Made by a program: the position numbers and the translations under genes. A DNA stretch of 64,000 nt, taken from NCBI GenBank assembly GCA_964390545.1, contig CAYMJV010000002.1:15555-79554 (forward strand), given 5' to 3'. Below the pieces are notes generated by a model, which ran no database searches, had not been told where the DNA came from, and was given only the letters and a program-made list of their open reading frames with translations. Of the stretch, positions 29,781 to 55,797 are shown piece after piece. The stretch comes from an uncultured Syntrophaceae bacterium (GTDB lineage: Bacteria; Desulfobacterota; BSN033; UBA1163). The first letter of the stretch is position 1. Each line of letters begins with the position of its first letter.

Positions 29781-31697
29781 TTATCGATGACATTCCAAAT
29801 CCTGAATCATCCACCTCAAATCTTCCACCCTTGGCTTCGCCTTGGGAACCATTTCAATCCCTTTTTGATAATAATACTTACCCTTTTCGATATCCTTCAT
29901 TCTGCTGACATAAATGTTACCCAGTTCCTCATAAAGGGTGATGATGCCTGGGGCCAATTTCATTGCCTTCGTCAACTCTCTAATGGCACCTTCATAGTCA
30001 CCCATTTCCTTATAGAGGATCCCTAATCCAAATAATAGCCTCACATCCTTTGGATTTTTCGATAGTAAATTTCTTAGGATCGCCTCTGATTTCCCATACT
30101 CCTTTTGGTTCTGGTAGTAAAGAGAAAGGTTGATTTTCAAGACCTCATCTTCGGGTTTCAACGACAGGGCAGCCATCAACTCCTGAAGGGCCCGTTCAGG
30201 CCGATTAAGTTTTTGATAAACGATACCAAGATTGTTTCGAGACTCATAATCTATCGGAAGAATCTGGACCGCTTTTTCGAGATATTCTGCCGCTTTTTCG
30301 TCCATCCCTAAATCCATATAGACGACCCCCATGAGGGCATTGGCCACATTGCTCTCAGGATACTTTTCCACTGCATCTGACCACAGGGTGTAACTGTTTT
30401 CCCATATTCTGTTTTGCTGAATGGTCAGGAAGGAATAACACCCTAGCAAAAACAAAAAAAGGGTTAGGGAGAGTAGTTTGAAAAATCCTTCAGAAAATCT
30501 TGGATGAATGATGGAGGACAACCTATCAAAACCAATTCCCAAAAGAAAACAAGTCGAGAGGGAAGGGATAAAAACATACCGATCTGCCAGAAGGGTGCTG
30601 ATCGGGATAATATTGAGATAAGGGAGCAAGGTCACAAAGAAGAACCATACAGAAAAGAAAATGACCTTTGTCCTCTTGAGAGACCAGATGCTTAACCCAA
30701 GCAGCGAACAAACGGACACGACGGCGATTAGAGTTCGAAGGTTAAGGAGTTCAACGGGAAGAGTAATCGTGTAAGCGGCTGAGTAGTTGAACGCAAAGGC
30801 CAGAAGTTTGATATTGTAGAGAAAGACATAAAAGCTGATCAGGAAGTTATTAAAGAAATTGCCTCCCCTGTAGGGCTTCACTCCTCCGGCATCAAGCATG
30901 ACTCTGATTAATATGAAGGCAAAGATGAGGGAAACAATAATAGAAAGGACGAAAAACAACCAGTGTCCCTTCACAAAATCAATCCATCTGTCTTGTCGGA
31001 GGGCTATCTCATAAACGAGGATGATTGCTGGAAAGACAATGGCTGCGGGTTTTGAAAGCGTGGCCAGAAGAATAGAAAGAAGAACCAGACCAAGGAAGGT
31101 TATTTTAGCCCCCCCCTTCTTCCCCCTTCCTTTGAGGTAGAGATAAAAAGCAAGAAAAAAGAAAAATCCTTGAAGGACTTCTTTCCTAGCTGCAAGCCAT
31201 GTCACTGCCTCCACATGGACGGGATGCGCAGCAAATAAAAGCGCACCGAATAACCCGACACGGAAATGGGAATCTGGCTGCTTCCCTCCTCTCAAATTGG
31301 CAGATAAAAACCTAAGAACAAGAAAGACCATCAGACAGGTAAGTATGTAAAAAAGAATATTTGTTATACGATAACCCGTGGGGTTCAATTTCCAGAATTT
31401 GTAGTCAACTGCGTAACTTAACATCCGAACAGGCTGATACGTTTGCCCTTTCTCAGGCTTAAATATTTTCTTAATTCCTTCCCAACCTAAGTTCCGGATG
31501 CTTGCATTTTGGTAAATCATCCCATCATCCCAATTGGTGAACTGGTGTCCCAGGGTATTAAGATAAAGAACAGCTACAAGAACAGCAATCAGAAGAGAGG
31601 CGATCCATTCTCTTCGAGGACTTACCAACCCCCTCGGCTCATGGGCGTGGGACATACCGGCCTTTCCACTTTTAAATAACATGCGGTTTAAAATCAC
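29781..31697 (-). CDS. GT-C fold membrane glycosyltransferase with C-terminal TPR array (TMTC/PMT-like)
   Basis: 638 aa. First-loop acidic motif (FTNWDDGMIYQN...YQPVRMLSYAVDY) and about 10 TM helices, followed by at least 5 TPRs (NALMGVVYMDLG...LGILYKEMGDYEGAI). The start may be the ATG at 31655, because the track start overlaps the upstream gene by 26 nt. Confidence 0.7.
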   Translation of the reverse strand: MILNRMLFKSGKAGMSHAHEPRGLVSPRREWIASLLIAVLVAVLYLNTLGHQFTNWDDGMIYQNASIRNLGWEGIKKIFKPEKGQTYQPVRMLSYAVDYKFWKLNPTGYRITNILFYILTCLMVFLVLRFLSANLRGGKQPDSHFRVGLFGALLFAAHPVHVEAVTWLAARKEVLQGFFFFLAFYLYLKGRGKKGGAKITFLGLVLLSILLATLSKPAAIVFPAIILVYEIALRQDRWIDFVKGHWLFFVLSIIVSLIFAFILIRVMLDAGGVKPYRGGNFFNNFLISFYVFLYNIKLLAFAFNYSAAYTITLPVELLNLRTLIAVVSVCSLLGLSIWSLKRTKVIFFSVWFFFVTLLPYLNIIPISTLLADRYVFIPSLSTCFLLGIGFDRLSSIIHPRFSEGFFKLLSLTLFLFLLGCYSFLTIQQNRIWENSYTLWSDAVEKYPESNVANALMGVVYMDLGMDEKAAEYLEKAVQILPIDYESRNNLGIVYQKLNRPERALQELMAALSLKPEDEVLKINLSLYYQNQKEYGKSEAILRNLLSKNPKDVRLLFGLGILYKEMGDYEGAIRELTKAMKLAPGIITLYEELGNIYVSRMKDIEKGKYYYQKGIEMVPKAKPRVEDLRWMIQDLECHR

Positions 31698-33654
31698 CCT
31701 GCTGATCCATGAAGATTCGAAACCAATTCTCTAAAAAGAGAAGAGACCAAATCTTTGCCGAATGGTCATAGCGTAAGGAGAGGTGCTCTTCCAGGAGTTG
31801 TTCGATGCCTTCTTTCCTGAAATATCCTCTCTGCAGCGCCTTCCGGTCCAAGAGGACATCGTAAACATAATTTTTTAGATCTTTTCTAATCCATCTTGAA
31901 ATGGGAACGCCGAATCCCATCTTTTTTCGCTTTGAAATAGCCGGTGGAAGAAAATCGGAAAAAGCTTTCTTGAGGATAAATTTGGCCCTGGATCCGTTTA
32001 GTTTGAATTGGGATGGAATTTGTGCGACCAATTCCATGAATTGATGATCCAGAAACGGAACGCGGGCCTCGAGAGAATTAGCCATGGTGGCAATATCCAT
32101 TTTGACGAGTAGATCCTCAGGAAGGTAGGAATGGATATCCAGATAAAGCAATTTATTTAAAGGATCTTCGGTTTCGCTTTCCTCGTATTTTTCTACTAAA
32201 TAACCAACGGGGTCGATGTGCATTAAGGTATGATCCATTTCTGGGGAATAAATTCCACTTCTCTCTTTGGCGTTGAAGATTTTGATCTGTTCTGCGTAAT
32301 TTCTAGCCTGGTTAGAAGATAACAATTCCAGAAAATCTGCCAGCCGATTGAATGTCTTCTCCCTCCAATGCAGGGAAGCCCCCATTCTGAGAATGGGCGG
32401 CATCCAGTCCTTTCTTACCTTTTCTGGAATTTTAGTAAACCAGGCAACCCACTTACTTCGAAGATATCTCGGATAACCTGCAAAATTCTCATCCCCGGCA
32501 TCTCCGGTGAGCACCACTTTCACGAAATCCTTTGTCATCTTCGCCACATAATAGGTGGGAATGGCTGACGAATCAGCGAACGGTTCGCTGTAGTACCATA
32601 CCAATTCAGGCAAAATCTCAATGGCATTCGGCCGCACCACAAATTCGTGATGTTCAGTCGAAAAATGTCTTGAAACAATTCTTGCGAACCCCAGCTCATC
32701 AAACTCTTTCTCTTCAAACCCTATGGAGAATGTTTTTACAGGTTGATGACTCAACTTCGACATGATCCCTACGACGAGACTGGAGTCCATCCCTCCGCTC
32801 AGAAAGGCCCCTACAGGGACATCGCTGATGAGTCTGAGTTTCACCGATTCTTCGAGCCCTGACCTGATTTGATCACCCCATTCATTCAAATCCGCTTTAT
32901 TCTTTTGAATCGGGGAAAAATCGAGGTCCCAGTATTTTTCTATCTTCACCTTTCCTGACAGATCATAGAGCAGGTAGTGGGCGGGAGGTAATTTCTTTAT
33001 CCCTTCGAAGATCGTAAGAGGAGACGGAACATATTGATAAGTCAAATAATGATGAAGCCCAACGAGGTTCACCTTTCGCTCGACCCCTGCTGCTTGAAGA
33101 ATTGCCCTTATCTCTGAGGCAAATAGAAAGCGACCTTTCCCCATCCAGTAAACCAAGGGTTTCTTGCCCAGCCTGTCTCGAGCCAGAAAAAGCCTTTTCC
33201 GCTTCAGATCCCAGATAGCAAAGGCGAACATCCCTCGAAAATATTTCAGGCACTCAACATCCCATTCTTCATAGGCATGAAGGATCACCTCTGTGTCAGA
33301 TCTTGATCTAAAAACATGTCCTTTTTCTTCTAACCCTTTCCTGACTTCTTGGAAATTATAAATCTCTCCGTTATAAACGATCCAAATCGTTCCATCCTCA
33401 TTACGCATGGGCTGATGCCCAGCTTCCGAGAGATCGATGATGGAGAGACGGCGGTGTCCCAACGCCACTTCAAAACCACCTTCATCTCGAGGGGGTCCTG
33501 ATGATTTGTTCACTTCAATGGTTCGACTCCCTCTTAGGAAGAGCATTCCTTCATCATCCGGCCCCCGATGTGCCAAGGCATCACACATCCTCTTGGTCAC
33601 TTCCACGGAGATGCGCTTATTGTCGAAATCGATCTCCCCACAGATCCCGCACAT
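31672..33654 (-). CDS. Asparagine-synthase-family glutamine amidotransferase, copy 1
   Basis: N-terminal MCGICG (Ntn Cys nucleophile), HRGPDD, and the PP-loop SGGMDSS. Confidence 0.85.
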   Translation of the reverse strand: MCGICGEIDFDNKRISVEVTKRMCDALAHRGPDDEGMLFLRGSRTIEVNKSSGPPRDEGGFEVALGHRRLSIIDLSEAGHQPMRNEDGTIWIVYNGEIYNFQEVRKGLEEKGHVFRSRSDTEVILHAYEEWDVECLKYFRGMFAFAIWDLKRKRLFLARDRLGKKPLVYWMGKGRFLFASEIRAILQAAGVERKVNLVGLHHYLTYQYVPSPLTIFEGIKKLPPAHYLLYDLSGKVKIEKYWDLDFSPIQKNKADLNEWGDQIRSGLEESVKLRLISDVPVGAFLSGGMDSSLVVGIMSKLSHQPVKTFSIGFEEKEFDELGFARIVSRHFSTEHHEFVVRPNAIEILPELVWYYSEPFADSSAIPTYYVAKMTKDFVKVVLTGDAGDENFAGYPRYLRSKWVAWFTKIPEKVRKDWMPPILRMGASLHWREKTFNRLADFLELLSSNQARNYAEQIKIFNAKERSGIYSPEMDHTLMHIDPVGYLVEKYEESETEDPLNKLLYLDIHSYLPEDLLVKMDIATMANSLEARVPFLDHQFMELVAQIPSQFKLNGSRAKFILKKAFSDFLPPAISKRKKMGFGVPISRWIRKDLKNYVYDVLLDRKALQRGYFRKEGIEQLLEEHLSLRYDHSAKIWSLLFLENWFRIFMDQQGDFKPHVI

Positions 33655-33655
33655 C

Positions 33656-34834
33656 TTAGGCTCTCCCGCTCAGCATATGTTGATAGAGTTCGATGTATCG
33701 ATTAGCGATCAAATCAATGGAGTAATTTTCTCGTATATATTGTCTGCTCCTTCTACCCACTTCTTCTCTTACTCCTCCCTCTCGAATAAGATAACGGATG
33801 GCATTGGAAAGCCCTTGGACATCTCCGGGATGGACAAGGACTCCATTCTTGGCCAAAATGTATTGCCCTACCGAAACTTCTTTGGATTCTCCCTTCCCAA
33901 GGGCCTCTGGATTTCCTCCGACATCTGTCGCAATGCATGGAATTCCTTGGCTCATGGCTTCCAACAAGGCATTGGACACCCCTTCAGTTCTTGAAGGCAG
34001 GACAAAAAGATCAGCCTCTCTCAAGTAAGAAGAGACATCCTGAACCATCCCACGAAAATCGATTGAATCTGTCAGGTTTAATGATTTGGATAAATTTCTG
34101 AGTTCCGATGCAAGAGGACCATCTCCCAGAATCAGAAGTTTAAGGGATTTTTCATGTTGCATCACCTGGGCCCATGCTTTAATTAGGATATCCATCCCTT
34201 TTTCCCTGCTCAGCCTTGCTGATGTCAGGACAGTTCTAACGGGGGCGTAAGCACCCTTCCCTTCGGACGAAATCTCAACACCATTGGGAATATAGACAAT
34301 GCGCGATTCAGGATATCCGATCTCGATAAATTCCCTTCCACTGATCTTGTTTGTCGCAACCAAATAATCCATTTTCTTGACCAAATATTTCAATTGAAAA
34401 TCCCCTGAAGGATATCGTCTTAACTCCCTGATATCACTTGTCATTCCAGAACTTCCGCTTTTAACAAGAACCGGTTTATGAAGAAGTTCTCTTCCAAAGA
34501 ATACAGAAACAAAAGCGGGGTAAAGGACTTGATGGACATGAATCAAATCGTAATGCTTCCCCTGTGCAAGAAGATAAGCGCCAAGGCTCGCCATATAGGC
34601 CAAGACTCCAAAGGAACGAATCCCTCTTATTCCGAACATTCCCCAGCATGAAAAATTCCGAATGACTCTAATCCCATCTATCCTTTCCGTCGGAAGGGTA
34701 TTGATCCGCCACCACCCTGTTATAAGAGTAACATCAACACTCTTCTCTATTAATTTCTTAGCGAGCAATTGGGCCTGTTTTTCTGCTCCCCCAATGAGAG
34801 GATAAAACTGTGAAATGACCATTAGGACTTTCAT
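33656..34834 (-). CDS. GT4 (GT-B) glycosyltransferase
   Basis: C-terminal EX7E-type motif (LPSRTEGVSNALLEAMSQGIPCIATDVGG). Confidence 0.8.
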   Translation of the reverse strand: MKVLMVISQFYPLIGGAEKQAQLLAKKLIEKSVDVTLITGWWRINTLPTERIDGIRVIRNFSCWGMFGIRGIRSFGVLAYMASLGAYLLAQGKHYDLIHVHQVLYPAFVSVFFGRELLHKPVLVKSGSSGMTSDIRELRRYPSGDFQLKYLVKKMDYLVATNKISGREFIEIGYPESRIVYIPNGVEISSEGKGAYAPVRTVLTSARLSREKGMDILIKAWAQVMQHEKSLKLLILGDGPLASELRNLSKSLNLTDSIDFRGMVQDVSSYLREADLFVLPSRTEGVSNALLEAMSQGIPCIATDVGGNPEALGKGESKEVSVGQYILAKNGVLVHPGDVQGLSNAIRYLIREGGVREEVGRRSRQYIRENYSIDLIANRYIELYQHMLSGRA

Positions 34835-35703
34835 CCGTTACCTTTGCGGGAATCTCTTCGCCTCATGAGATAATTGGGTTTTAAAACCCGTTCCATTCGG
34901 TATCCCTCGCTTTCAAGAAGCTCGATTACGTTTCCTCCTGCCCTTTCCACGAGTTCCGAATGCTGTTCAATAATCATAAAGTCAGGGCGCAGGGAGTCGT
35001 CAATATCCCTGAAGAATTGATGTAGGACCCTAAACTCAAAACCTTCGATATCGAACTTGGCCCCTTGGACTCGATTAATTCCATGTTTCCTTAAGAGCGC
35101 CGCAAGGGGAGAACACGGGACATCAACGTGATCTTCATTCATTGATAAAAATGAATTTCCTGCTCGATTCCCAGTGACATTCAACCCGAGGCGAAGAACC
35201 TCCTTTTTGTTCGAGACTCCCTCATTCACCGCGATAACATTTTGGATATGATTCAATTTAAGGTGAAGTGTAAGTTTTCTAAAATTGTAAGGGTCCGCTT
35301 CCACCGCAACGACAGACCCCTTTTCTCCGACGATCCGTGATGCGATCAGTGAATAAAACCCGATGTGGGCGCCGATGTCCAGGAAGATATCTCCTGGCCG
35401 TAAATGTTTCCTCATAAACTCAATTTCACGGTGCTCGTAAAGATGTGGATAGAATAACAATGCACCATCGACGCACTCATAAGGATCTAACTGCATTCTA
35501 AAACCGAGGGCCTCCACTTCCAAGGATATCCTTCTTTTCCTCAGATAGAACTGTCTCAGGAGACTTGCAGCAAAGGCCGCTCCTCTCATCCGTGGAAATC
35601 TCCTAGTCAGGCGGGATAAGAATTTCAATTCAGAATCCAACGTTGCCTCCGGCAAAGGGTGGTTCAAGCCTGTCTTCATCACCTTCAGCATTGAGTTTCT
35701 CAA
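34831..35703 (-). CDS. FkbM-family SAM methyltransferase
   Basis: FLDIGAHIGFYSL...VVAVEADPYNFRKL pattern. Confidence 0.7.
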   Translation of the reverse strand: MRNSMLKVMKTGLNHPLPEATLDSELKFLSRLTRRFPRMRGAAFAASLLRQFYLRKRRISLEVEALGFRMQLDPYECVDGALLFYPHLYEHREIEFMRKHLRPGDIFLDIGAHIGFYSLIASRIVGEKGSVVAVEADPYNFRKLTLHLKLNHIQNVIAVNEGVSNKKEVLRLGLNVTGNRAGNSFLSMNEDHVDVPCSPLAALLRKHGINRVQGAKFDIEGFEFRVLHQFFRDIDDSLRPDFMIIEQHSELVERAGGNVIELLESEGYRMERVLKPNYLMRRRDSRKGNG

Positions 35704-35814
35704 GCCCCCCTCCTCTGGTCAACTTACTTAAAACATGTTGAGATCTTTCTGTGGATCGGCAAAATCCCTCACCTAACGGACCCCTCAGGTGATCAATCAC
35801 ACCAGGCCCACTTT

Positions 35815-36804
35815 TCAAAATAGGTTTGCCATCCAACCCTTTACAGCTCGGGTGACACGTGCATACTTAGGGAGCACGCTCACATTTCTCTTTTCGAGAG
35901 CGTATAGTGCTCCCCCTAGTGGTAGAGCGAAAAGGACCAAGCTTTTTGCTAACGCAGGCTGAATCTTCCGTAACGATCTCGATATTCCCATCCCCGAGTG
36001 CAGTGAAAATCGAACGTAATTTACTGCCGATCTAAAGAAATCCCATGGGGCGAAGCGAAACCACATGATTTCCTCATTTAGACGAAGTTCGTAATAGAAT
36101 ACCCCCCCCGCAGCATTTCTGGATGGGTCGCTTAACGAATGAGTAATTTGATCTGAAGAAAACGCATTTTGAATAAAATATATCCTTAGCACTTCGTTCA
36201 CGAAACGGGTCTTGTACGACTTTGCAATTGCATTCCAGACCACACCCTCTGGAACATACCTTGCTCCTTCAACGTCTGGGAAAGGATATCGGCGTAACAC
36301 TTCGCTACACTGAAATCCCCACTTTTCGCCTTTCACCCCGTACCGATAATAAATTTCAAGAGAATCAGAATCCGTAATGTCCCAGGGAAATCTATGCCCG
36401 ACCAACCTCCCATACTGGTCCTTACATAGGCCGCAAACCCCGGAGAATCGGGGTTTTTGCTTCGTTGGAATAGAATCCCAGTGGAATTTAAAACGCTCTA
36501 AGGCTTCCGGAACACATGCATCGTCGGAATCAAAAGGGAGGAAGAATTTCCCCTGGGCCTGTTCCAAGCCTCGTCTGAAAGCCACATGTTTTCCCTTGTT
36601 CGGCTGCCACACGTAACGAACGAGAAAATCTGCCTCTTGCTTCCACTTTTCAACGACCTCATATGTATCATCAGTGGAACCATCGTCCACAATGATCCAC
36701 TCGAAACTCCGATATGTCTGCGCTCGAAGGCTTTCATAGACGCGCGGCAACGTATGGGCACGGTTAAGAGTTGGGGTGAATACTGTAAACAATGGCTTGT
36801 CCAA
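35815..36804 (-). CDS. GT2 glycosyltransferase
   Basis: FTVFTPTLNRAHTL...WIIVDDGSTDDT and DxD motif (FDSDD). Confidence 0.8.
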   Translation of the reverse strand: MDKPLFTVFTPTLNRAHTLPRVYESLRAQTYRSFEWIIVDDGSTDDTYEVVEKWKQEADFLVRYVWQPNKGKHVAFRRGLEQAQGKFFLPFDSDDACVPEALERFKFHWDSIPTKQKPRFSGVCGLCKDQYGRLVGHRFPWDITDSDSLEIYYRYGVKGEKWGFQCSEVLRRYPFPDVEGARYVPEGVVWNAIAKSYKTRFVNEVLRIYFIQNAFSSDQITHSLSDPSRNAAGGVFYYELRLNEEIMWFRFAPWDFFRSAVNYVRFSLHSGMGISRSLRKIQPALAKSLVLFALPLGGALYALEKRNVSVLPKYARVTRAVKGWMANLF

Positions 36805-45881: not shown

Positions 45882-45902
45882 TGGAGCCGAAAAAATTCTC
45901 TC

Positions 45903-47392: not shown

Positions 47393-49247
47393 AATACCTC
47401 TCCCACCACACCTGAAACATCATCAGGTTCCAAACCTTGGCAGCGTTACTTTTCTTGCCAGCGTAATAATCATCCAAAATATATTTTACGTAATGCACAT
47501 CAAAAAAGTGATGAGTTTTGAGTCGGTTTTCTGATAGGGTATCGAAACTATAAGGTTTGAGCTTATCAACCATCCAGTCGAAGATGGGTAAAACAAATCC
47601 CTCCTTTGGCCTTTCTGCAATTCCATGTGGGAGTAAGTGCCAGACGGTTCTTTTTAATATATCTTTCACAATTCCGTTTCTTATTTTCATATAACCGGGA
47701 ATTGTTGAAACAAATTCGACAAGCCTATAATCGAGGAAAGGAGAGCGAATTTCTACAGAATGAGCCATCGATAAAAAGTCTATAAAAGCGAGCACTTGAT
47801 CGGGGAGTTGGGTGTTCCATTCCATTTCGAGCATTCGATTGAGAGGATCCTTTGAGGTGGTCTGATTAAAATTTTCAGCGAAAAGGGAGAAAGAGCTAGG
47901 GTGGTCTATATTTGATCTAAAATCGGGGGTTAAAAGTAAATCCTTTTCCTCATCACTGAATACCCCCAGTTGATATCGCCACTTAACGTCATCGCCTCCT
48001 GATTTCTTATCGAGATCCGTTAAGAAATCGATATCACATGGTTTCAGGAGATCCCTCTCCTCTTCCGTTAAAGTCCCCCTCTGTATCTTTCTCGATAGCC
48101 TTTTGAAATGATGCATCGGTTGAGCAAGCCTATGAGAGAGATAACTGCCGAAAAGTTCATCAGCAGCATCTCCAGAAAGTGCGACCTTCACATGTTTCGT
48201 GATCAATTTCGTAAGAAAATATGTGGAGATGGTCCCTGAAAAAGGTTGGTCAAAGGCGACGATGACCTTTCCTATTTCATCCAATAATTCTTTGTAAGGC
48301 ATGATATATTCATGATGATCTGTCTTATATGCCTTTGCCACCCTACGCGCGTAATATAAATCTGCTTCCTTATTCCTTAATTCGTCTTCATACCCGAGGG
48401 AGAACGTTTTGATAGGCTTATTTGTAAACTTTGTCATTAATGCAACAATCGAACTTGAGTCCACACCACCGCTCAAATAGGCGCCAAATGGTACATCGCT
48501 AATCATCCGGACCCGAATGGCATCTTCCAGCAATTCCAATATTTTCTCTTTGAGAACAGCTTCGTCCTGATCTTCTTTTTTAACGAATCGGATTTTCCAC
48601 CATCTCTTTTTAGAAATCTCTGTCTTCGAAAAGGTTAATATCTCCCCGGGGACAAGGGAATAAATATTTTTGAAAGCAGTGAGAGGTGATGGAACATTCT
48701 TAAAGGTAAAGTAATGGTAGATGGCTTCGCAATTAATGTCCCGTTGATACTCGGGATGTTCCAAAATGGCCTTAATCTCAGAACCAAATATGAGATGGTT
48801 ATTGGCAACGGTATAGAAAAGGGGTTTTACCCCCATCCGATCTCTGATCAGCAAAAGTTTATTCTTTCCTGAATCCCACAAAGCAATGACAAACATACCG
48901 TTCATTTTATGGACAAAGTCATCGCCATATTCTTCGTAGAGATGAACAATCACCTCTGTGTCAGAATGGTCCGTATAAAATGTGTGCCCTTGTCCTAGCA
49001 GCTCTTTTCTTAATTTCTGGAAATTATAAATCTCTCCGTTAAAGACTACCCAAAGAGTTCGGTCCTCGTTATGCACGGGCTGATGGCCTGTCTCGAGATC
49101 TATAATACTTAGTCTTCTGATGCCGAGATTCATGTTTCCATCCGAATAAAATCCTTCTTCATCCGGACCACGGTGAAAGATCGCGTCCGTCATCCTCTTC
49201 AATACGATTTCGTTCGGGGGTCCCGAAAAACCACAAATGCCGCACAT
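47385..49247 (-). CDS. Asparagine-synthase-family glutamine amidotransferase, copy 2
   Basis: MCGICG, HRGPDE, and the PP-loop SGGVDSS. Confidence 0.85.
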   Translation of the reverse strand: MCGICGFSGPPNEIVLKRMTDAIFHRGPDEEGFYSDGNMNLGIRRLSIIDLETGHQPVHNEDRTLWVVFNGEIYNFQKLRKELLGQGHTFYTDHSDTEVIVHLYEEYGDDFVHKMNGMFVIALWDSGKNKLLLIRDRMGVKPLFYTVANNHLIFGSEIKAILEHPEYQRDINCEAIYHYFTFKNVPSPLTAFKNIYSLVPGEILTFSKTEISKKRWWKIRFVKKEDQDEAVLKEKILELLEDAIRVRMISDVPFGAYLSGGVDSSSIVALMTKFTNKPIKTFSLGYEDELRNKEADLYYARRVAKAYKTDHHEYIMPYKELLDEIGKVIVAFDQPFSGTISTYFLTKLITKHVKVALSGDAADELFGSYLSHRLAQPMHHFKRLSRKIQRGTLTEEERDLLKPCDIDFLTDLDKKSGGDDVKWRYQLGVFSDEEKDLLLTPDFRSNIDHPSSFSLFAENFNQTTSKDPLNRMLEMEWNTQLPDQVLAFIDFLSMAHSVEIRSPFLDYRLVEFVSTIPGYMKIRNGIVKDILKRTVWHLLPHGIAERPKEGFVLPIFDWMVDKLKPYSFDTLSENRLKTHHFFDVHYVKYILDDYYAGKKSNAAKVWNLMMFQVWWERYFG

Positions 49248-49248
49248 G

Positions 49249-50187
49249 TCAGGTATTTAATAAATAATAATCTGCTCTTGCCGCCTGCCAGTCCCTGCAA
49301 TCCCTGCAATTCTCTGGGAGGGCATGAAATTGTTTAAGAAGATGGAACTGCCTTAGCTCTTTTAACTTTCCGTTCCACACTTCCTTAAGAGATTGATGGT
49401 TGATATCCCCGGCAATAAATTTTGCATCCAAATCGACTGCACAGGTGACCACCTTCCCTGTATCAGTAATCGACATGGTTCGCATGGCCCAGTAGCAGGG
49501 CCAACGCTCTACACCGCCAATAACTAAGTTGGGAGCATCGACGAGTCCTGCCCAGCTGACCATAGGCCGAATTTTTACGACAGCTCCTTGCTGATTCCAG
49601 AATTGAATAAAGTCTTCTTTTTCATTTTGGTTGATGTCCATTTCAACAAACTGCACAAACACCTCGGGTTTCTCCGAGTTCATCAATTTTTTGAGCTTCA
49701 TTAATTGCGCGGTATTCTGAACCACTTTTTCATAATTTCCACCCACTCGAATCTTTGCATACGTGTCAGGTTTAAAGGCGTCGATGCCGATATAGATGGC
49801 ATCCAGACCTGAACAAATCAGTCTCTCTGCTGCAGATTTGCCTAACAAATTTGCATTCGAATTCAGAACCACATCTCTTAAACCCTCACGTTTTGCATAA
49901 GCGATCATGTCAAAGATGGTTGGTTTTTTTCTTTTTAATAATAGGGCCTCTCCGAAGAAGACCATCCAAACTCTTACGCTCTTGTCCACTTTAGCGATTT
50001 CGTTTATGATTTTTATAAAAAGGTCCCACGAAATAATGCCTTTTTGCCTTTTCATTTCTTTGTGCACACACATGGAACATTTGAGGTTGCAGTAGCTAAT
50101 CGTATCGATGAGAACGACTTTAGGAAAATCGCCTGCATCTTCAAGCCTGCCTTGTTTCTTTTGAACTTCTAAAACTTTGTTCTCCAT
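49249..50187 (-). CDS. Radical SAM enzyme with Cys-rich C-terminal extension, copy 2 (paralog of 45903..46934)
   Basis: CNLKCSMC (Cx3Cx2C). C-terminal CYWAMRTMSITDTGKVVTC ... CRDC. Colinear with copy 1. Confidence 0.75.
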   Translation of the reverse strand: MENKVLEVQKKQGRLEDAGDFPKVVLIDTISYCNLKCSMCVHKEMKRQKGIISWDLFIKIINEIAKVDKSVRVWMVFFGEALLLKRKKPTIFDMIAYAKREGLRDVVLNSNANLLGKSAAERLICSGLDAIYIGIDAFKPDTYAKIRVGGNYEKVVQNTAQLMKLKKLMNSEKPEVFVQFVEMDINQNEKEDFIQFWNQQGAVVKIRPMVSWAGLVDAPNLVIGGVERWPCYWAMRTMSITDTGKVVTCAVDLDAKFIAGDINHQSLKEVWNGKLKELRQFHLLKQFHALPENCRDCRDWQAARADYYLLNT

Positions 50188-50212
50188 ACGTTTGTTTCTT
50201 ATGATTTATTAT

Positions 50213-51241
50213 TCAAAGCGCTTTATTAAAAACATCTGGTCGAACCTCTCGAAGTTCCAGCTTTTTAAGAATATTCACAATTCTCTTTGCGGACTTTCCA
50301 TCCCAAAACTCTGGCGTTCCGCCTTTTTTCCAATTTCCTGATAAAATCAAATCCATCCTATCGTCAATATTCCCCATGGATACTAATTCATTCGTTCCCT
50401 GAGTAATGGTAATTGGCCGTTCTATAGTAGTCCTTAGTATGAGGCAGGGGACATTTAAATAGGTTGTTTCTTCTTGTATCCCACCAGAATCTGTGAGGAC
50501 AAACTTCGAGTATTTTCCACGGGTAATGAATTCTTTATAACGGAGTGGTTCCAAAACTTTGAAATCTCTATTAGAAGCGAAGCCTGCGTCAAATCCATTT
50601 ATATTTTTCTTTGTTCTCGGGTGAGCGGGGAAAAAAACTGGTATTCTGAGAGAAAGGGTATTCAAAAAATTCATAATCCTCCAAAGATCATTCTTATCAT
50701 CGACATTCGAAGGCCTGTGAAGGGTGACCAAAATAAAATGGTTTCTTTGTAAACCGAATTTCTGAAAAACCTTATCTTCATAGGATGGATCAATCCTTTT
50801 TAAAATTGAGATTAAAGAATCGATCATGATATTCCCAACAAAATGGATTCTATTTCTTTCGACTCCCTCCCGAATAGGATTTTCATCTCCATCTTTCGAT
50901 GGAGTAAAAAGGATATCCGAAATGGAATCGGTCACTTTCCGGTTGATTTCTTCGGGCATGGTCATATCAAAACTCCGAAGCCCGGCTTCCACATGGGCCA
51001 CTGGAATGGAGAGTTTCTTAGCTGTCACACTGCAAGCGAGGGTTGAATTCACATCACCAAAGACCACTACCAGGTCAGGATTTTCATTTTGAATCACTCG
51101 CTCAAAATCGATCATTATCTTCCCTGTTTGTTCTGCGTGGGTTCCAGACCCGACCCCCCAAAAGTAATGCGCCTCAGGTAAGTCCAGGTCTTCAAACAAT
51201 TCTTTGGACATTTCATAATCATAATGTTGACCGGTGTGCAA
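50213..51241 (-). CDS. wecB: UDP-N-acetylglucosamine 2-epimerase homolog lacking the N-terminal ~35 aa (possible pseudogene)
   Basis: Begins (TTG) at ...HTGQHYDYEMS. VAHVEAGLRS and MPEEINR motifs are present. The GTRPE-type first beta-alpha unit is absent, and an in-frame TAG lies 8 codons upstream, only 17 nt after the preceding gene. Confidence 0.7.
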   Translation of the reverse strand: MHTGQHYDYEMSKELFEDLDLPEAHYFWGVGSGTHAEQTGKIMIDFERVIQNENPDLVVVFGDVNSTLACSVTAKKLSIPVAHVEAGLRSFDMTMPEEINRKVTDSISDILFTPSKDGDENPIREGVERNRIHFVGNIMIDSLISILKRIDPSYEDKVFQKFGLQRNHFILVTLHRPSNVDDKNDLWRIMNFLNTLSLRIPVFFPAHPRTKKNINGFDAGFASNRDFKVLEPLRYKEFITRGKYSKFVLTDSGGIQEETTYLNVPCLILRTTIERPITITQGTNELVSMGNIDDRMDLILSGNWKKGGTPEFWDGKSAKRIVNILKKLELREVRPDVFNKAL

Positions 51242-51282
51242 GATAATGGGGGTGAAATGTTTATTCTAGCCCCTCAAAATTC

Positions 51283-52437
51283 CTACCATAGGATTCCTTT
51301 GGTGGCCAACAGAAACATCTTCTCTTTCCAATCAAAAACAAAGGCCTCTTTTCTCTCTCGGCATAGGCCAATGATATAATTTGAATATTGGGCATCAGAG
51401 AACACTCGATGTACTCTATCCGCAATTGCTTCCTCATCCGAAGGATTAAACATCAACTCTTCATACTGAAGAATGTCTATGATGCCAGGTATCCTACTGC
51501 CTATGCAAGGTACCCCTAATCCCAGCACCTCTAAGAGGGCGTTGGGCATCCCTTCACTCTTTGAAGGTAATACAAAAAGATCAGCCACAAGGTAGGTCAT
51601 CCACAGTTCTTCCTTCTCCAGCCATCCTGTGAAGATTACCCTATGATCAAGACTTAATCTCCTTGTTAATTCTTTTAGGTGGTTGATGTAAGAAAAATCT
51701 TCTTTCGAAGAACCATCCCCGATGATAAATAGAAACAAATTGTCCATCCCAATTCTGGGCAGGCATTTGATGAGCATCTCCATATTCTTACCGCGGTTTA
51801 GGATTCCAGCCGTCATGAGAACTTTCGCTCCGATTGGGATCCGCAATCGACATCTTATCTGATTGGCATCTTCTAGCTCCATTTTTGGCATTGGAGGAAT
51901 ATTGTTATAGAGCAGTCTAACGTCAACGTGTTTCTTCTTCCCGACTGTCCTAAGAATCTCGTTTTGAGTTTCTCCGTTGTTGGTGAGGATTCGATCGGAA
52001 AATAGGAACCCCAAATATTCCATCATCCTGTTGATCGACAGAAAGAAACCGGAGGAGCGGCGGACCATCAAGCCAAACGTTGAGTTTCCGCGTATAAAGG
52101 TTACCATCCTTCTTCTCAGGACCCATTTAGGGATTGCAAGCAAAAATGCATAGATCGAACCAAAGGCGACAAAAAGATCGATCTTTTCCCTCCAGCCGAT
52201 GAGAAGGGAATAGAAAGGAAAGAGAAATACAGTCACGAATTTGGCCACCCATCCTCCCTTCGCTCCAAGGGAAAGGCCAAGCCGGTGATTATAATAGCAG
52301 GGATGCTTCATCTTGATCGGCGTCAGGGATAAGCAGTGAACCTCACATTTTCTATCCAAAAAAGCTTCGACCATCATGAGAAATCGGTCGTAGGCTCCTC
52401 CTTTTCTTAGAGTGTACATTGCTGTTAGTATCTTCAT
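51283..52437 (-). CDS. GT4 glycosyltransferase
   Basis: LPSKSEGMPNALLEVLGLGVPCIGSRIPG. The start is taken at ATG 52437 (MKILTAMY). The track ORF starts at 52473. Confidence 0.75.
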   Translation of the reverse strand: MKILTAMYTLRKGGAYDRFLMMVEAFLDRKCEVHCLSLTPIKMKHPCYYNHRLGLSLGAKGGWVAKFVTVFLFPFYSLLIGWREKIDLFVAFGSIYAFLLAIPKWVLRRRMVTFIRGNSTFGLMVRRSSGFFLSINRMMEYLGFLFSDRILTNNGETQNEILRTVGKKKHVDVRLLYNNIPPMPKMELEDANQIRCRLRIPIGAKVLMTAGILNRGKNMEMLIKCLPRIGMDNLFLFIIGDGSSKEDFSYINHLKELTRRLSLDHRVIFTGWLEKEELWMTYLVADLFVLPSKSEGMPNALLEVLGLGVPCIGSRIPGIIDILQYEELMFNPSDEEAIADRVHRVFSDAQYSNYIIGLCRERKEAFVFDWKEKMFLLATKGILW

Positions 52438-52439
52438 CT

Positions 52440-53069
52440 TCAAAATCTGGAAAAACAGATGTCTTTTACGCAAATTTGCCTTGTGTCTAATAGGTTTTTA
52501 AGCTTCTCTTTTCTGAGATCATTTTCTTCCAAGGAGGTGATCAATATGCAATCGGGTTTTAGTTCTTTGATTCGACTGACGGGTTCTAATTCGTAACCCA
52601 AGAGTATTTGAGATCTAAATTTTTCATCATCCTCGACAATTCCAACTAATTTGAGATTGACGCCCTGAAGAGTGATATAAGCGACTTCCATTTCATCACT
52701 GATCCCATAAAAAACGATTCGATGGAACCCTTCCCGCTCCATTTCCAAGAGTCTCTGACTGATCATTTTCTTCAACTCAGAATAATGCTGAATGGTATAA
52801 GCAATCATGTGAAGGGATAGTTTGGTCTTTTCTGCAAACCCTATGGGTGTAAGGTAATAACCAATCTTTCGATGGCTTAAGCCTCGAATCCGAATCCACC
52901 CTTTTCGTACCATCCTCCTCAGGCAGGCGTTTGTAACTCCTAAGGCGATATTGAACTTGTGGCTCAATTGGCGTTGCGAGATGATGGGGTTGCGCTCGAG
53001 CTCCTCAAGGAGTCGGAGTTCCCTGATCTCCTCCGAAGGTTTAAAAATACCTAAATTTTGATTTCCCAT
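52440..53069 (-). CDS. Winged-helix (MarR-like) transcriptional regulator with C-terminal Rossmann-like domain
   Basis: ISQRQLSHKFNIALGVTNACLRRMVRKGWI...YYLTPIGFAEK. First gene downstream of a sigma-54 promoter. Confidence 0.6.
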   Translation of the reverse strand: MGNQNLGIFKPSEEIRELRLLEELERNPIISQRQLSHKFNIALGVTNACLRRMVRKGWIRIRGLSHRKIGYYLTPIGFAEKTKLSLHMIAYTIQHYSELKKMISQRLLEMEREGFHRIVFYGISDEMEVAYITLQGVNLKLVGIVEDDEKFRSQILLGYELEPVSRIKELKPDCILITSLEENDLRKEKLKNLLDTRQICVKDICFSRF

Positions 53070-53238
53070 TGACGCTTCTTATAACCTCTTAGAAATTAAA
53101 GGACATTTTTGTAATCCGTTCAAACATTGAACACTGGAAAGAAAAAAAATAAAATGGCTTAAGTTATTGAATCTAATCCCTTTTCAAAACAGACCCGTAA
53201 TGGCATGGAATAAAGACAACTACTAAGATTCATTAACG

Positions 53239-53254
53239 AGCAACTTCTATGCCA
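53239..53254 (-). promoter_or_regulatory. Sigma-54 promoter heading the regulator + glycan operon
   Basis: The minus strand reads TGGCATAGAAGTTGCT, that is TGGCAT-N5-TTGCT. It lies 5 nt after the GT4 stop (53259) and about 170 nt upstream of the start at 53069. Confidence 0.65.
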
Positions 53255-53258
53255 CATT

Positions 53259-54428
53259 TCAATTTTCTGAAGATAGCACCTTCTCGTAAATTCTCTTTGT
53301 TTTTTCTATAGTTGCTGGCCACAGAACCTTCTCGGTGACAAGGCGAAGGTTCTTCTGCCTAGCTTTTTCAACCAGTGGTCTATTCCGGATACTTTCGAGA
53401 ATTCTCATCGCTAAAACTCTTTCCTCATCTGTCGGAACCAAGAAACCATTTTCCCCGTCAGAGATCCACTCTCTATTGGATGGGATATCTGTCACCACAG
53501 GAAATGCACCCGAGCCTAAGGCTTCGAGCAACGATACCGACGTCCCATCATGCAAGGAGGTTGAAACGTAAATATCTGTCTCACCCAGAAGATTCAGCAT
53601 AGTGTCATGAGGCACTCGCCCCAGAAATTGAACGAAATCTCCTAGATTCAGATTTTTCACTTCCCTTTCCAATCCTTCTCTTTCAGGACCATCACCGGCA
53701 ATAAAACATTTTACCTTTGACTCTTCTCTAAGGACGAGAGGGATTGCCCGAATGAGCAGAGAAACATTATAGATAGGCAACAGATTTCGATTACTCAAAA
53801 TGGTGGTCGGCCGCTTACCGAAACCTACTCTCTGAGCCCCCTCCTTATCGAGAAAACCGGATTCGATACCCATGGGAAAAGCTGATATCCTCCCCCGGTT
53901 GATTCCCAGGGCCTCTAACTCCCTTTTCATTCCCTCCGAGACACAATGAAGATGATTTGCCTTTTTGCACACATAGAGAAAGATCCTCTTAAGGAAAGAA
54001 GATTCGTCCATGGCCAGCCTGAAGTCAGACCCATGGATAGTGACCATTAAGGGTTTTCTTGATAAAAAGGCAACTCCCACGCCGATCAATCCCGTTGGAA
54101 TAGCCCAGTGGACGTGGATCATCTGACATCGATGCCTGATGAGGGCATAGAGAGTCAAGAAAAATCCAGAGATGTAATAAAAGCACATGCGTAAATAAGG
54201 AATTTTATCATATTCGATCAAAAGCCGATTTCCCCCAAAGAATGGAAACCGATAGATCTTCATTCCGTTTTGTTCTTCCACGTAACAACTCTTCTTATAA
54301 ATTTTGGGAGTCACGATAGCGATATCATATCCATCCGTCTTTAGAAGGGAAGCCATCTTCTTTATAAAGATGCCCCGGTAGGAAGAATCAAAATCAGGAT
54401 AGGCATTCGTAAGGAATAAAATCCTCAT
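53259..54428 (-). CDS. GT4 glycosyltransferase
   Basis: MRILFLTNAYP... and VSTSLHDGTSVSLLEALGSGAFPVVTDIPSN. Confidence 0.8.
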   Translation of the reverse strand: MRILFLTNAYPDFDSSYRGIFIKKMASLLKTDGYDIAIVTPKIYKKSCYVEEQNGMKIYRFPFFGGNRLLIEYDKIPYLRMCFYYISGFFLTLYALIRHRCQMIHVHWAIPTGLIGVGVAFLSRKPLMVTIHGSDFRLAMDESSFLKRIFLYVCKKANHLHCVSEGMKRELEALGINRGRISAFPMGIESGFLDKEGAQRVGFGKRPTTILSNRNLLPIYNVSLLIRAIPLVLREESKVKCFIAGDGPEREGLEREVKNLNLGDFVQFLGRVPHDTMLNLLGETDIYVSTSLHDGTSVSLLEALGSGAFPVVTDIPSNREWISDGENGFLVPTDEERVLAMRILESIRNRPLVEKARQKNLRLVTEKVLWPATIEKTKRIYEKVLSSEN

Positions 54429-54451
54429 AAGGAAGCCAGGAAGCCAAGAAA

Positions 54452-54835
54452 TTACTTGTGGATAACTCTTTTAACCTCAAGGATTTTTCTAGAGAAATTT
54501 ATGATCAAACCATGTTGCTTATCCAGTGCTTTAAGGTAAGACTTTACAATTGCGAAATGGATATCTTCTACATTCTTAACCGCTTTCAGCTCAACAATGA
54601 TAGTATCATCTATAATGAGATCGAGCCTATGCCTTCCAACTTCAATACTATCATATTTGATCACGACCTCTCGTTGCCTCTCAACTTGAAGATGTTGTTT
54701 CTGCAACTCAATGATAAAAGCATTTTCGTAGATTGACTCCAAGAATCCAGGACCTAATTTTTTGTGAACCTCAATAGCACACCCGATAATCTTCTCAGTC
54801 AGATCTTCATATTCCAATCCTTTTCCTGGTTTCAT
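54452..54835 (-). CDS. GxxExxY-family protein (PD-(D/E)XK-like fold)
   Basis: LTEKIIGCAIEVHKKLGPGFLESIYENAF contains the G-FL-E-SI-Y motif. DLIIDDTIIVELKAV...LINF. Confidence 0.75.
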   Translation of the reverse strand: MKPGKGLEYEDLTEKIIGCAIEVHKKLGPGFLESIYENAFIIELQKQHLQVERQREVVIKYDSIEVGRHRLDLIIDDTIIVELKAVKNVEDIHFAIVKSYLKALDKQHGLIINFSRKILEVKRVIHK

Positions 54836-55797
54836 GGCTTCCTTATTTCTTTTCTTAATTCCAGGTTCTCTTTCTGGATGCGGAGAATCTCTCTGCGAAG
54901 GGAAACGATTTGAATGGCTATAAATCCAAAAGAGAGAATCTGAATGCCTCCTAGGATCAACAAGATCGCAAAGGTGATGAGGGGCCTTCCTGGAGCCAAT
55001 CCCCCTGAAAATCTTAAGTAGGTGATATAAAGGCCGATCAAAAGCCCTATTCCGAGGGTGATGAGACCAAGAAAGCCAAATATCATCATTGGCTTTTCAA
55101 AGATAGAGAAAACCAAATGTGAAATAGCTGTTTTTTTGAATTTGAATTTCGACCGCCCCCTCTTTCTTCCTTTAAGAGTCACGGGGATTTCTTTAATCCG
55201 GAAACCCAGAGCCATCGCTTTGGAAAGGATTTCGAGATGAATCTCCTTCCCGTTCGACTCAAGCTCGAGAGAATCGAGGACATGTTTCCGGTAGGCACGG
55301 AAGATTCCAGTAGAAGTGTAAATCCTGTTGGGGAGAGCCAATCGGAGGATTTTGTTTCCCAATTTACTGATCCATAAACGAAGGACCGGGACTTCCTGAA
55401 CCTTTCCTCCTGGCATATAGGGAGAAGCAAGCACCAAATCTATGTCTTCTCCCCTCTTCAGGACATGAACCAAATCGAGGATAAAACGAGGATCGTAACT
55501 CAGGTCCGCATCGATGGAGACAACCATCTCCCCTTTCGATTCCTGAAACCCCTTTCTCAAGGCCATCCCGCGCCCCATATTTTTTGAATAAGAAACCACT
55601 CTTACCTTTTCATTTTGGGATTCTATCTTTCTTAGTATATCTAAGGTATGGTCGATGCTCCCATCATTGACGGCAATGATTTCATAAGTCCCATCGAAGG
55701 AAGCCAGTGCCTCTTCAACCCGGTTCAGGCTCGTTTCCGCATTCTCGGCTTCATTGAACATGGGGATGACTATTGAAAGGTCCATTTTCCCTTCCAT
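54832..55797 (-). CDS. GT2 polyprenyl-phosphate sugar synthase (GtrB/ArnC/DPM1-like) with two C-terminal TM helices
   Basis: LSIVIPMFNEAEN...EIIAVNDGSIDHT, DADLSYDP, and two C-terminal TM helices (MMIFGFLGLITLGIGLLIGL; ITFAILLILGGIQILSFGFIAI). Confidence 0.8.
   Translation of the reverse strand: MEGKMDLSIVIPMFNEAENAETSLNRVEEALASFDGTYEIIAVNDGSIDHTLDILRKIESQNEKVRVVSYSKNMGRGMALRKGFQESKGEMVVSIDADLSYDPRFILDLVHVLKRGEDIDLVLASPYMPGGKVQEVPVLRLWISKLGNKILRLALPNRIYTSTGIFRAYRKHVLDSLELESNGKEIHLEILSKAMALGFRIKEIPVTLKGRKRGRSKFKFKKTAISHLVFSIFEKPMMIFGFLGLITLGIGLLIGLYITYLRFSGGLAPGRPLITFAILLILGGIQILSFGFIAIQIVSLRREILRIQKENLELRKEIRKP

Follow-up and report, generated by a model that had tools for sequence, protein, structure and literature searches.

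A 64-kb window of the genome of an uncultured sediment bacterium of the Syntrophaceae (the whole stretch analyzed here: contig CAYMJV010000002.1, positions 15,555 to 79,554; coordinates below are those of the window) is occupied throughout by a type IV pilus (T4P) supercluster, encoded on the minus strand. Embedded in this complete supercluster is a 26-kb island of 24 glycan genes (29781-55797, minus strand), flanked by three pilin genes on one side and by pilD-pilS-pilR on the other. We interpret the region as a T4P-associated O-glycosylation island of the TfpW/three-component kind, a reading that we hold at about even confidence and in which the target and the mode of transfer are inferred. 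Two genes bracket the island: a GT2 glycosyltransferase at the pilin end and, at the pilD end, a glycosyltransferase with a predicted GT-C fold and a C-terminal tetratricopeptide repeat (TPR) array, referred to below as GT-C/TPR. By analogy with characterized systems, we infer with reasonable support that GT2 makes an undecaprenyl phosphate (Und-P)-linked sugar, which would serve GT-C/TPR in the periplasm to modify a pilus protein, the major pilins being the simplest candidates. More weakly, the 22 interior genes are suggested to elaborate the same glycan.

An initial annotation, made from the sequence alone, had placed a glycan island between the pilin genes and pilD. The island is real and has the coordinates given there. 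Its genes are indeed co-directional, but they amount to 24 open reading frames (ORFs) of at least 100 amino acids (aa) instead of about 26. All lie on the minus strand with spacings of -70 to +111 nt, apart from a single gap of 189 nt. The genes that frame the island are the following.

57153-57608, minus strand: pilA1, probable major type IV pilin, 151 aa (Pfam N_methyl and Pilin)
56436-56900, minus strand: pilA2, second Pilin-family gene, 154 aa (Pfam N_methyl and Pilin; aligned with pilA1 and homologues)
55885-56322 (ORF to 56484), minus strand: ComP_DUS-type pilin (Pfam ComP_DUS and N_methyl)
54832-55797, minus strand: GT2, polyprenyl-phosphate-sugar synthase of the DPM1/GtrB/ArnC/AglJ type (Pfam GT2), first gene after the pilins
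29781-31682 (ORF opens at 31697), minus strand: GT-C/TPR glycosyltransferase, TMTC/TfpW-like, 633 aa, at the pilD-proximal island end
28950-29714, minus strand: pilD (Pfam)
27253-28926, minus strand: pilS (Pfam)
25798-27177, minus strand: pilR (Pfam)

Judged from its sequence, the first bracketing gene is a polyprenyl-phosphate-sugar synthase, that is, a maker of donors for GT-C transferases, because its product resembles DPMS, GtrB, and ArnC along its entire length, including two C-terminal transmembrane (TM) helices (residues 228-246 and 267-285). Matches among PDB sequences include the Dol-P-Man synthase DPMS (5mlz, 6e-32), GtrB (sll0501; 5ekp, 7e-29, residues 4-297 aligned), and ArnC (4.5e-24). 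The NCBIfam families PgfS, ArnC, and AglJ were matched over their full length but below threshold, and the JGI name is dolichol-phosphate mannosyltransferase. The gene was recovered from 80 metagenome contigs at 76-100% identity, and it is preceded by pilins in the contigs that reach upstream.

A gap of 66 nt separates the second bracketing gene from pilD downstream, and 24 kb lie between it and the pilins; its start was set at the methionine that matches homologues, giving 633 aa. The N-terminal ~430 aa are polytopic, and residues ~430-633 form the TPR array (15 TPR Pfam families). The N-terminal 450 aa have no Pfam match even at E ≤ 5, including none to DUF1736, and a profile of the N-domain found no match among PDB sequences; distant homologues reach Pfam PMT_2 or PMT. 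AlphaFold2 (AF2) models of the protein have pLDDT values of 79-82. Because the TPR region dominated the full-length fold search, which returned TPR matches only, the N-domain was modeled separately (pLDDT 79, pTM 0.84). The top Foldseek matches of this model were ArnT (5f15/5ezm), STT3, Pmt4, Pmt1/2, and AftA, with probabilities of 0.87-1.0, TM-scores of 0.38-0.52, and weak E-values of 3e-3 or worse; EmbB was also matched (probability 0.28). The N-domain is thus predicted from the model to have a GT-C fold of the ArnT/PMT/STT3 type. In 48 homologues with identities as low as 20%, D52, D53, P84, H153, P154, H156, E158, and V160 are invariant, and K211 (≥90%) and P354 are nearly so. The acidic D52 D53 pair fits the GT-C motif of the first extracytoplasmic loop.

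The initial annotation had called this protein a TMTC-like GT-C, which agrees with both the fold prediction and the motifs. The TMTC motifs have been described as M1 DD, M2 (S)YRP, M3 RxD, M4 KE, and M7 ERxxY (PMC7801869). At equivalent positions, GT-C/TPR has D52/D53 (M1), Y82-Q83-P84 (M2; family consensus YRP), R166-K167-E168 following HPVHVEAV (M3), K211 (M4; consensus SKE), and D367-R368-Y369 (M7; DRxxY), as judged by inspection against Table 4 of that paper and not by alignment to TMTC sequences. No conserved counterpart of the TMTC DW motif (M5) was seen.

The frame is conserved in relatives (related loci are given L numbers below). Orthologues of GT-C/TPR with 59-70% identity occur in Syntrophaceae, Syntrophorhabdus, and metagenome-assembled genomes (MAGs) of other Thermodesulfobacteriota. 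Wherever the contig runs downstream, the order is variable sugar genes - (AsnB1) - GT-C/TPR - pilD - pilS - pilR - minor pilins - PilY1. The pilin side was compared by a metagenome scan with GT2, in which ~40 of the 80 contigs were long enough to show it. There the order is (second GT2) - AsnB3 - PMT_2-type GT-C (one to three copies) - methyltransferases, followed divergently by pilA (one or two copies) - ComP-like pilin - GT2 - (GxxExxY) - GT4d - winged helix-turn-helix (wHTH) gene - variable genes. The frame pilins - GT2 ... GT-C/TPR - pilD-pilS-pilR was found in every orthologous locus sampled, enclosing an interior of ~4 to 24 kb. Comparative genomics therefore supports the tie between glycan genes and pilus locus that the initial annotation had proposed.

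The interior varies greatly in size and content. A complete small island in L102 (~9 kb, 10 genes) reads GT2 - GT4 - wHTH - three GT4 - two methyltransferases - Wzx - GT-C/TPR. A 4-kb version in L013, directly after two pilins, reads GT2 - GT4 - GT4 - GT-C/TPR - Wzx, so that a Wzx-like (Polysacc_synt) gene adjoins GT-C/TPR in both. In L014 the order is GT2 - GT4 - GT4 - WecB - AsnB - GT-C/TPR - pilD, and in other relatives this slot is occupied by Wzm/Wzt (Wzt_C), sulfatase, B12-dependent radical SAM (rSAM), and similar genes. Over 9 kb (61385-52316), L085 matches the window at 96.8% identity, which then collapses inside the GT4c gene (51283-52473); past this point its WecB is 70% identical and the remainder is unrelated. 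The interior has therefore been exchanged between near-identical strains.

The pair is also found beyond the Thermodesulfobacteriota. In Gemmatimonadota/Longimicrobiales, the order is histidine kinase - sigma-54 response regulator - (GT-C) - GT2 - GT-C/TPR - pilA, with pilA within 0.1-4 kb after GT-C/TPR and no other match to the window's glycan proteins in the flanks. GT2, GT-C/TPR, and pilA are contiguous in the Gemmatimonadota locus L064, where ORF-by-ORF annotation shows only one further GT-C beside the trio. A Methylomirabilis MAG (L065) has three pilins, then two GT-C/TPR genes, a GT2::methyltransferase fusion, and pilD; the fusion (L065:8270-9688) is a single 472-aa protein joining a GT2 of the polyprenyl-phosphate-sugar synthase type to an S-adenosylmethionine methyltransferase. 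GT-C/TPR genes also stand beside pilin genes in some loci of Planctomycetia, and in a rough neighbor-joining tree of the GT-C proteins the T4P-linked members fall into at least 4 separate clades. Because the pair of GT2 and GT-C/TPR accompanies pilin genes in several phyla, the island probably decorates the pilus with a glycan that varies among strains.

The interior genes, annotated with Pfam and NCBIfam together with a TM-segment scan, are as follows.

54452-54835, minus strand: small GxxExxY/PD-(D/E)XK_3 gene (Pfam/NCBIfam; GC 0.36)
53259-54428, minus strand: GT4 glycosyltransferase GT4d (Pfam)
52440-53069, minus strand: wHTH protein, MarR/exopolysaccharide (EPS)-associated-regulator-like (Pfam HTH_24/MarR; TIGR04176 sub-threshold)
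51283-52473, minus strand: GT4 glycosyltransferase GT4c (Pfam)
50213-51241, minus strand: UDP-GlcNAc 2-epimerase WecB (Pfam Epimerase_2, 2.8e-97; TIGR00236, 268 bits, above cut-off)
49249-50187, minus strand: rSAM/SPASM protein
47385-49247, minus strand: AsnB2 amidotransferase
46922-47392, minus strand: GNAT
45903-46934, minus strand: rSAM/SPASM protein
45060-45881, minus strand: NTP-transferase
44374-45129, minus strand: WbqC-like protein
43319-44377, minus strand: dTDP-glucose-type 4,6-dehydratase (TIGR01181, 351 bits; cut-off 365)
42025-43290, minus strand: Wzx-like flippase (Polysacc_synt, weak, E 1e-8; 8-11 TM), the sole flippase candidate in the window
40762-42021, minus strand: methyltransferase MT-419aa
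39607-40743, minus strand: DegT aminotransferase
38918-39643, minus strand: methyltransferase
37722-38921, minus strand: GT4, weak
36887-37684, minus strand: methyltransferase
35815-36804, minus strand: GT2
34831-35703, minus strand: FkbM methyltransferase
33656-34834, minus strand: GT4
31672-33654, minus strand: AsnB1 amidotransferase, overlapping the start of GT-C/TPR

Pfam and NCBIfam uphold most of the enzymes listed by the initial annotation: the nucleotidyltransferase, the 4,6-dehydratase, DegT, WbqC, GNAT, two GT2, two rSAM (rSAM/SPASM) enzymes, and two AsnB amidotransferases with a third at 61.4 kb; its Wzx corresponds to the weakly matched Wzx-like protein. Its three GT4 are in fact four (33656, 37722, 51283, and 53259), and of its at least 5 methyltransferases in the island only four lie inside (34831, 36887, 38918, and 40762), two others being outside (58362 and 59069). 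WecB, the wHTH gene, the GxxExxY gene, and the DPM1/GtrB/ArnC nature of the bracketing GT2 were absent from that list.

Some interior genes are shared with relatives. GT4d stays next to GT2 and shows 59-93% identity in most contigs that reach beyond it, and the wHTH gene, the first after an internal promoter motif, is kept. AsnB1 partners GT-C/TPR in most orthologous loci; it has 58-71% identity and adjoins the GT-C in L001, L002, L005, L006, L008, L011, and L012, and the Wzx-like protein is 60% identical to its counterpart in L008. The block rSAM/SPASM - AsnB - GNAT - rSAM/SPASM - NTP-transferase (45060-50187) moves as a whole: L150 has it at 70-92% conservation, and L138, whose contig ends there, has its first two genes at 81-89%; the islands of L138 and L150 are otherwise unlike that of the window. 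The GxxExxY gene, which lies between GT2 and GT4d, has a GC content of 0.36 versus ~0.44 around it and is present only in some relatives, a pattern that would be expected of a small mobile insertion. From the predicted enzymes, one building block may be a dTDP-4-amino-4,6-dideoxyhexose (NTP-transferase, 4,6-dehydratase, and DegT), N-acylated by WbqC or GNAT, and another a ManNAc-derived sugar from WecB; amidated carboxylates (two or three AsnB) and O- or N-methyl groups are further possible modifications.

The initial annotation had reported no Wzy polymerase, chain-length regulator, WaaL ligase, or initiating phosphoglycosyltransferase (PGT), and as far as Pfam, TM, and motif scans reach, none was found. 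The Pfam scan covered all ORFs of the island and of the right flank and the larger ORFs of the left half, with small single-TM ORFs of minor-pilin type in the left half unscanned. Among the ORFs scanned, there was no Pfam match to Wzy, Wzz, WaaL, an initiating PGT, or a Wzy_C-domain oligosaccharyltransferase (PglL/TfpO), and no Pfam or NCBIfam match to the D-Araf donor pathway (DPPR synthase/PPPRS, DprE1/DprE2). PGT motifs (Bac_transf "VGPRP" and WecA "DGxDGL") were found neither in the window nor in 168 related loci (1.9 Mb). In the TM scan, GT-C/TPR and the Wzx-like protein were the only multi-TM proteins of the island, and no small multi-TM ORF that could be a flippase of the GtrA/ArnE-F type was found on a coding strand, leaving the Wzx-like protein as the only candidate. 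Of the features of a Wzx/Wzy O-antigen locus, the window thus has a Wzx-like protein and nucleoside diphosphate (NDP)-sugar genes and shows neither Wzy nor Wzz. The absence of a PGT, Wzy, or WaaL from the window fits initiation by GT2.

Sigma-54-type promoter motifs occur both in the island and at pilus genes around it. Searching for the sigma-54-type motif TGGCAY-N5-TTGCW with at most one mismatch returned 8 occurrences in the window versus 2.9 expected, of which these five lie on the minus strand 5′ of genes or operons.

57759-57774, minus strand: TGGCATGGATTATGCT, upstream of pilA1
53239-53254, minus strand: TGGCATAGAAGTTGCT, a perfect match, within the 189-nt gap that precedes the wHTH gene
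25499-25514 and 19139-19154, minus strand: upstream of both minor-pilin operons
11468-11483, minus strand: at the response-regulator (DUF4388) gene 10717-11493

The pilA-type motif precedes the first pilA copy by 125-210 nt in 24 related loci. The motif upstream of the wHTH gene is kept in 14 of 17 relatives, versus 1 of 70 at a control region upstream of GT2. There is no terminator-like site in the gap between GT-C/TPR and pilD or in the other intergenic gaps of pilD-pilS-pilR. Given this and the tiny gaps between genes, the wHTH gene through pilR may be one transcription unit.

We propose the following scheme. GT2 would load a sugar onto Und-P at the cytoplasmic face, and the lipid-linked sugar would possibly be extended and modified before flipping by the GT4 and GT2 enzymes, methyltransferases, and amidotransferases, with island-made dTDP-4-amino-4,6-dideoxyhexose (N-acylated) and UDP-ManNAc-derived sugars as substrates. 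Flipping would fall to the Wzx-like protein here and perhaps to Wzm/Wzt in some relatives. GT-C/TPR would then transfer the sugar to Ser/Thr of pilin in the periplasm, its TPR domain holding the protein substrate, and the second set of GT2 and PMT_2-type GT-C beyond the pilins may add further periplasmic sugars. In its most far-reaching form, the scheme amounts to a PGT-independent bacterial protein O-glycosylation in which GT2 starts on Und-P, the strain-variable island oligosaccharide built on this carrier in the cytoplasm is flipped by Wzx or Wzm/Wzt, and GT-C/TPR transfers it en bloc to pilins; we advance this form only tentatively and consider it doubtful.

Several known systems resemble parts of this arrangement. 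One of the closest is TfpW, the group IV pilin arabinosyltransferase of P. aeruginosa Pa5196/PA7 (646 aa, 11 TM, DDX motif, periplasmic TPR). Like GT-C/TPR, it is a polytopic GT-C of ~640 aa with DD(x) in the first periplasmic loop and a C-terminal TPR; the best templates in both cases are ArnT (membrane part) and OGT-TPR (TPR part), and both are encoded in a pilin locus and use a polyprenyl-phosphate-linked sugar donor (predicted here). In contrast, the tfpW gene immediately follows pilA, whereas the window gene is beside pilD (its Gemmatimonadota homologues are pilA-adjacent). The donor here is also not predicted to be D-Araf, as no DprE1/E2 or PPPRS gene was found among the ORFs scanned, and GT-C/TPR is paired with a DPM1/GtrB-type GT2, the two surrounding an extensive, variable set of glycan genes that includes a Wzx-like flippase. 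The eukaryotic TMTC1-4 proteins (GT-C/PMT clan, CAZy GT105) share with GT-C/TPR an N-terminal GT-C followed by C-terminal TPRs, the motifs DD 52/53, YRP, HPxHxEAV...R-x-(D/E), KE, and (E/D)RxxY at equivalent positions, and a DPM-synthase-like partner enzyme. They differ in that the window system is bacterial, DUF1736 and the DW motif were not detected in it, and its presumed acceptor is a pilin and not a cadherin.

Three-component systems (GtrA/GtrB/GtrC; CsbB/GtcA/YfhO; streptococcal GtrB plus GT-C) likewise combine a GT2 polyprenyl-phosphate-sugar synthase with an extracytoplasmic GT-C, and protein O-glycosylation by GtrB and a GT-C is known in streptococci (PMC11092751). Unlike them, the window has only a Wzx-like flippase and none of the GtrA or ArnE/F type, its GT-C bears TPRs, and its pair encloses cytoplasmic glycosyltransferases and NDP-sugar genes. 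Haloferax volcanii carries out Agl N-glycosylation with a Dol-P-linked oligosaccharide initiated by AglJ, a Wzx-like AglR, and the GT-C AglB. The logic proposed here is similar (a GT2 start on a monophosphate carrier and not by a PGT, soluble glycosyltransferases, a methyltransferase, a Wzx-like protein, and a terminal GT-C), but Agl is archaeal and N-linked with an STT3-type GT-C, and an Und-P-linked oligosaccharide is only proposed for the window system. The initial annotation had instead drawn on Neisseria pgl and P. aeruginosa TfpO. These systems, and Acinetobacter PglL, do share a Wzx-type flippase without Wzy and glycan genes linked to pilin genes, but the model was rejected, as its defining enzymes, a PglB-type (Bac_transf) PGT and a Wzy_C (PglL/TfpO) oligosaccharyltransferase, are absent among the ORFs scanned. 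TfpW, TMTC/PMT O-mannosylation, and three-component periplasmic glycosylation are closer models.

Several points weigh against the interpretation of the region as a T4P glycosylation island. The likeness to TfpW is one of architecture, the level at which the two were compared; the acceptor is predicted to be pilin from gene neighborhood and the TfpW/TMTC analogy, and might instead be PilY1 or another protein; and the TPR domain is only putatively periplasmic, as the AF2 model did not establish its side. Many members of the GT-C/TPR family in other phyla have no pilus genes nearby, and the family is thus broader than a pilus role. WecA and WaaL are usually encoded outside O-antigen loci, and the absence of both here is therefore weak evidence. 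The region could accordingly be a hypervariable O-antigen or EPS locus in a pilus cluster, with WecA and WaaL (or an exporter) elsewhere, in which GT2 and GT-C/TPR decorate the polysaccharide periplasmically and not the pilin. We consider this unlikely, though the genes are of the kind usually seen in O-antigen loci and differ through replacement between strains. The Wzm/Wzt ABC exporters with Wzt_C in the slot of some relatives are typical of O-polysaccharide/EPS loci, and the wHTH, AsnB, and GT4 proteins have sub-threshold matches to EPS-associated families (MarR_EPS; XrtA/PEP-CTERM-type AsnB and GT4). In Geobacter, the xap EPS cluster (xapD = GSU1501) lies beside pilA, which we count in favor of this alternative. 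Three-component systems of GT2 and GT-C are, moreover, best known for decorating O-antigens, and their presence inside O-polysaccharide loci is documented (PMC11127046). Against a polysaccharide role stand the GT2 - GT-C/TPR pairs directly beside pilA in Gemmatimonadota, without other window-type glycan matches in the flanks, and the TPR architecture, which fits the protein-modifying TfpW and TMTC and not enzymes of the GtrC type. The Wzx-like protein occurs without Wzy, the compact complete islands L102 and L013 have only glycosyltransferases, methyltransferases, and Wzx with the pair, and the island, which bears a sigma-54 promoter motif, runs directly into pilD-pilS-pilR.

Alternatively, two systems may be interleaved: the pair would attach just one hexose to pilin, or to some other protein of the pilus, in the manner of TMTC/PMT, and the 22 interior genes would form an unrelated, inserted surface glycan. 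The minimal Gemmatimonadota pair, with zero genes in between, and the interior's own promoter motif are consistent with this. The characterized relatives ArnT, PMT, and TMTC all move monosaccharides from polyprenyl-phosphate sugars, and en-bloc transfer of an oligosaccharide is for this reason without precedent in this GT-C branch. Yet interleaving also seems improbable to us, as the evidence that favors GT2-initiated (AglJ-like) assembly speaks against it: the interiors are graded (none, a methyltransferase only, two GT4, 4, 9, and 22 genes) and all lie strictly within the pair, no PGT is seen in any related island, the Wzx-like gene is directly beside GT-C/TPR in L102 and L013, and the GT2::methyltransferase fusion suggests cytoplasmic elaboration of a lipid-linked sugar. 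The 633-aa protein might instead be a non-catalytic pilus assembly factor like PilF/PilW/Tgl, given that JGI names of its homologues include "PilF" and "TadD" and that its TPRs match PilW and Tgl below threshold. We regard this as very improbable and rejected such a role on account of the (nearly) invariant catalytic-type motifs (DD, HPxHxE, and K) across phyla; the predicted GT-C fold and the consistent pairing with a polyprenyl-phosphate-sugar synthase also oppose it, and a separate soluble TPR protein is encoded at 12036-13103 (plus strand).

The pilin genes themselves and the flank beyond them add further features.

57085-57132, minus strand: terminator-like hairpin after pilA1, with a perfect 20-bp stem and T tails on both strands
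58362-61387, plus strand: divergent unit of methyltransferases 58362-59072 and 59069-59800 and a second GT-C
59810-61387, plus strand: second GT-C, PMT_2/GT39-like (via homologues), 525 aa
61443-63356, minus strand: AsnB3, third AsnB-type amidotransferase
63363 to >64000, minus strand: second ArnC/GtrB-like GT2, its C-terminal 178 aa in the window, running past the right edge

The exact protein sequence of pilA1 carries the JGI name PilA. PilA1 and PilA2 have a C-terminal loop rich in Ser/Thr (SP..TT..DGAINW). The ComP_DUS-type pilin, kept after pilA in the ~40 contigs, likely starts at M55, 5′ of the prepilin motif RGLTLIE. The hairpin after pilA1 probably attenuates transcription as a terminator and so sets the ratio of pilA1 to pilA2 expression, and a weaker terminator-like hairpin lies downstream of the ComP-like gene. 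The second GT-C is assigned as PMT_2/GT39-like because its homologues at 62-70% identity carry PF13231; their NCBI name is "GT family 39". A profile search with it found no match among PDB sequences, and hhalign between the GT-C/TPR family and its own family was non-significant (probability 2%), although the acidic motifs were nonetheless aligned. Together with AsnB3 and the second GT2, it forms a second polyprenyl-phosphate-sugar synthase/GT-C set on the far side of the pilin genes. One to three tandem, diverged copies (53-66% identical) of the PMT_2/GT39-like GT-C stand by pilA in L096, L102, L114, L116, L139, and L154, which suggests diversification of periplasmic sugar additions. In L168 (a contig of JGI 3300049995 with an identical PilA1 protein), a 324-aa GT2 adjoins an AsnB gene and a homologue of the second GT-C; the upstream order is GT2 - AsnB - extra methyltransferase - GT-C(-) - methyltransferase(-) - pilA1. 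Because this order differs from that of the window at 57-64 kb, the pilin-distal flank is also rearranged among close relatives.

The remainder of the supercluster, on the pilD side, contains the following.

112-5680, minus strand: pilQ-P-O-N-M
5838-11493, minus strand: regulatory block
13308-19017 and 20823-25465, minus strand: two PilY1 plus minor-pilin sets

The regulatory block comprises a sigma-54 response regulator, a PAS histidine kinase, a CheW-like protein, a small Ras/Arf-like GTPase (9589-10215), a 140-aa ORF, and a response regulator with DUF4388 (10717-11493), a content reminiscent of MglA/Frz-type polarity control. Between the two PilY1/minor-pilin sets lies a gene for a He_PIG/Big_9 Ig-domain protein (19498-20559), whose counterpart in relatives adjoins PilY1 or minor pilins.

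Pilin glycosylation by the GT-C/TPR protein TfpW, TMTC O-mannosylation, three-component systems, and streptococcal GtrB plus GT-C are already known. In the literature, we found no description of a GT-C/TPR paired with a DPM1-like GT2 or of its spread in Thermodesulfobacteriota, Gemmatimonadota, and Methylomirabilota, none of a strain-variable 4-24-kb glycan cluster enclosed by such a pair, and none of the system in Geobacter, Syntrophus, or other Thermodesulfobacteriota. If our interpretation is correct, GT-C/TPR (TfpW-type) pilin glycosylation would reach beyond a few Gamma- and Betaproteobacteria into abundant uncultured anaerobes and several other phyla, and would be tied to the eukaryotic TMTC/Dol-P-Man logic. 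Were the en-bloc form also true, GT-C/TPR would add a third class to the bacterial O-oligosaccharyltransferases, one spread over Thermodesulfobacteriota, Gemmatimonadota, and other phyla; the 10 genes of L102 offer a compact set for testing whether a TMTC-like enzyme is limited to single sugars. The locus would also represent a "pilus glycan island" that varies from strain to strain, much like the islands for O-antigen or flagellin glycosylation. A glycan that differs among strains would alter the pilus surface, for example, toward pilus-specific phages, which plausibly shaped the island. Such an island would also be relevant to the contacts that syntrophic bacteria of sediments make through their pili with surfaces, partners, and DNA.

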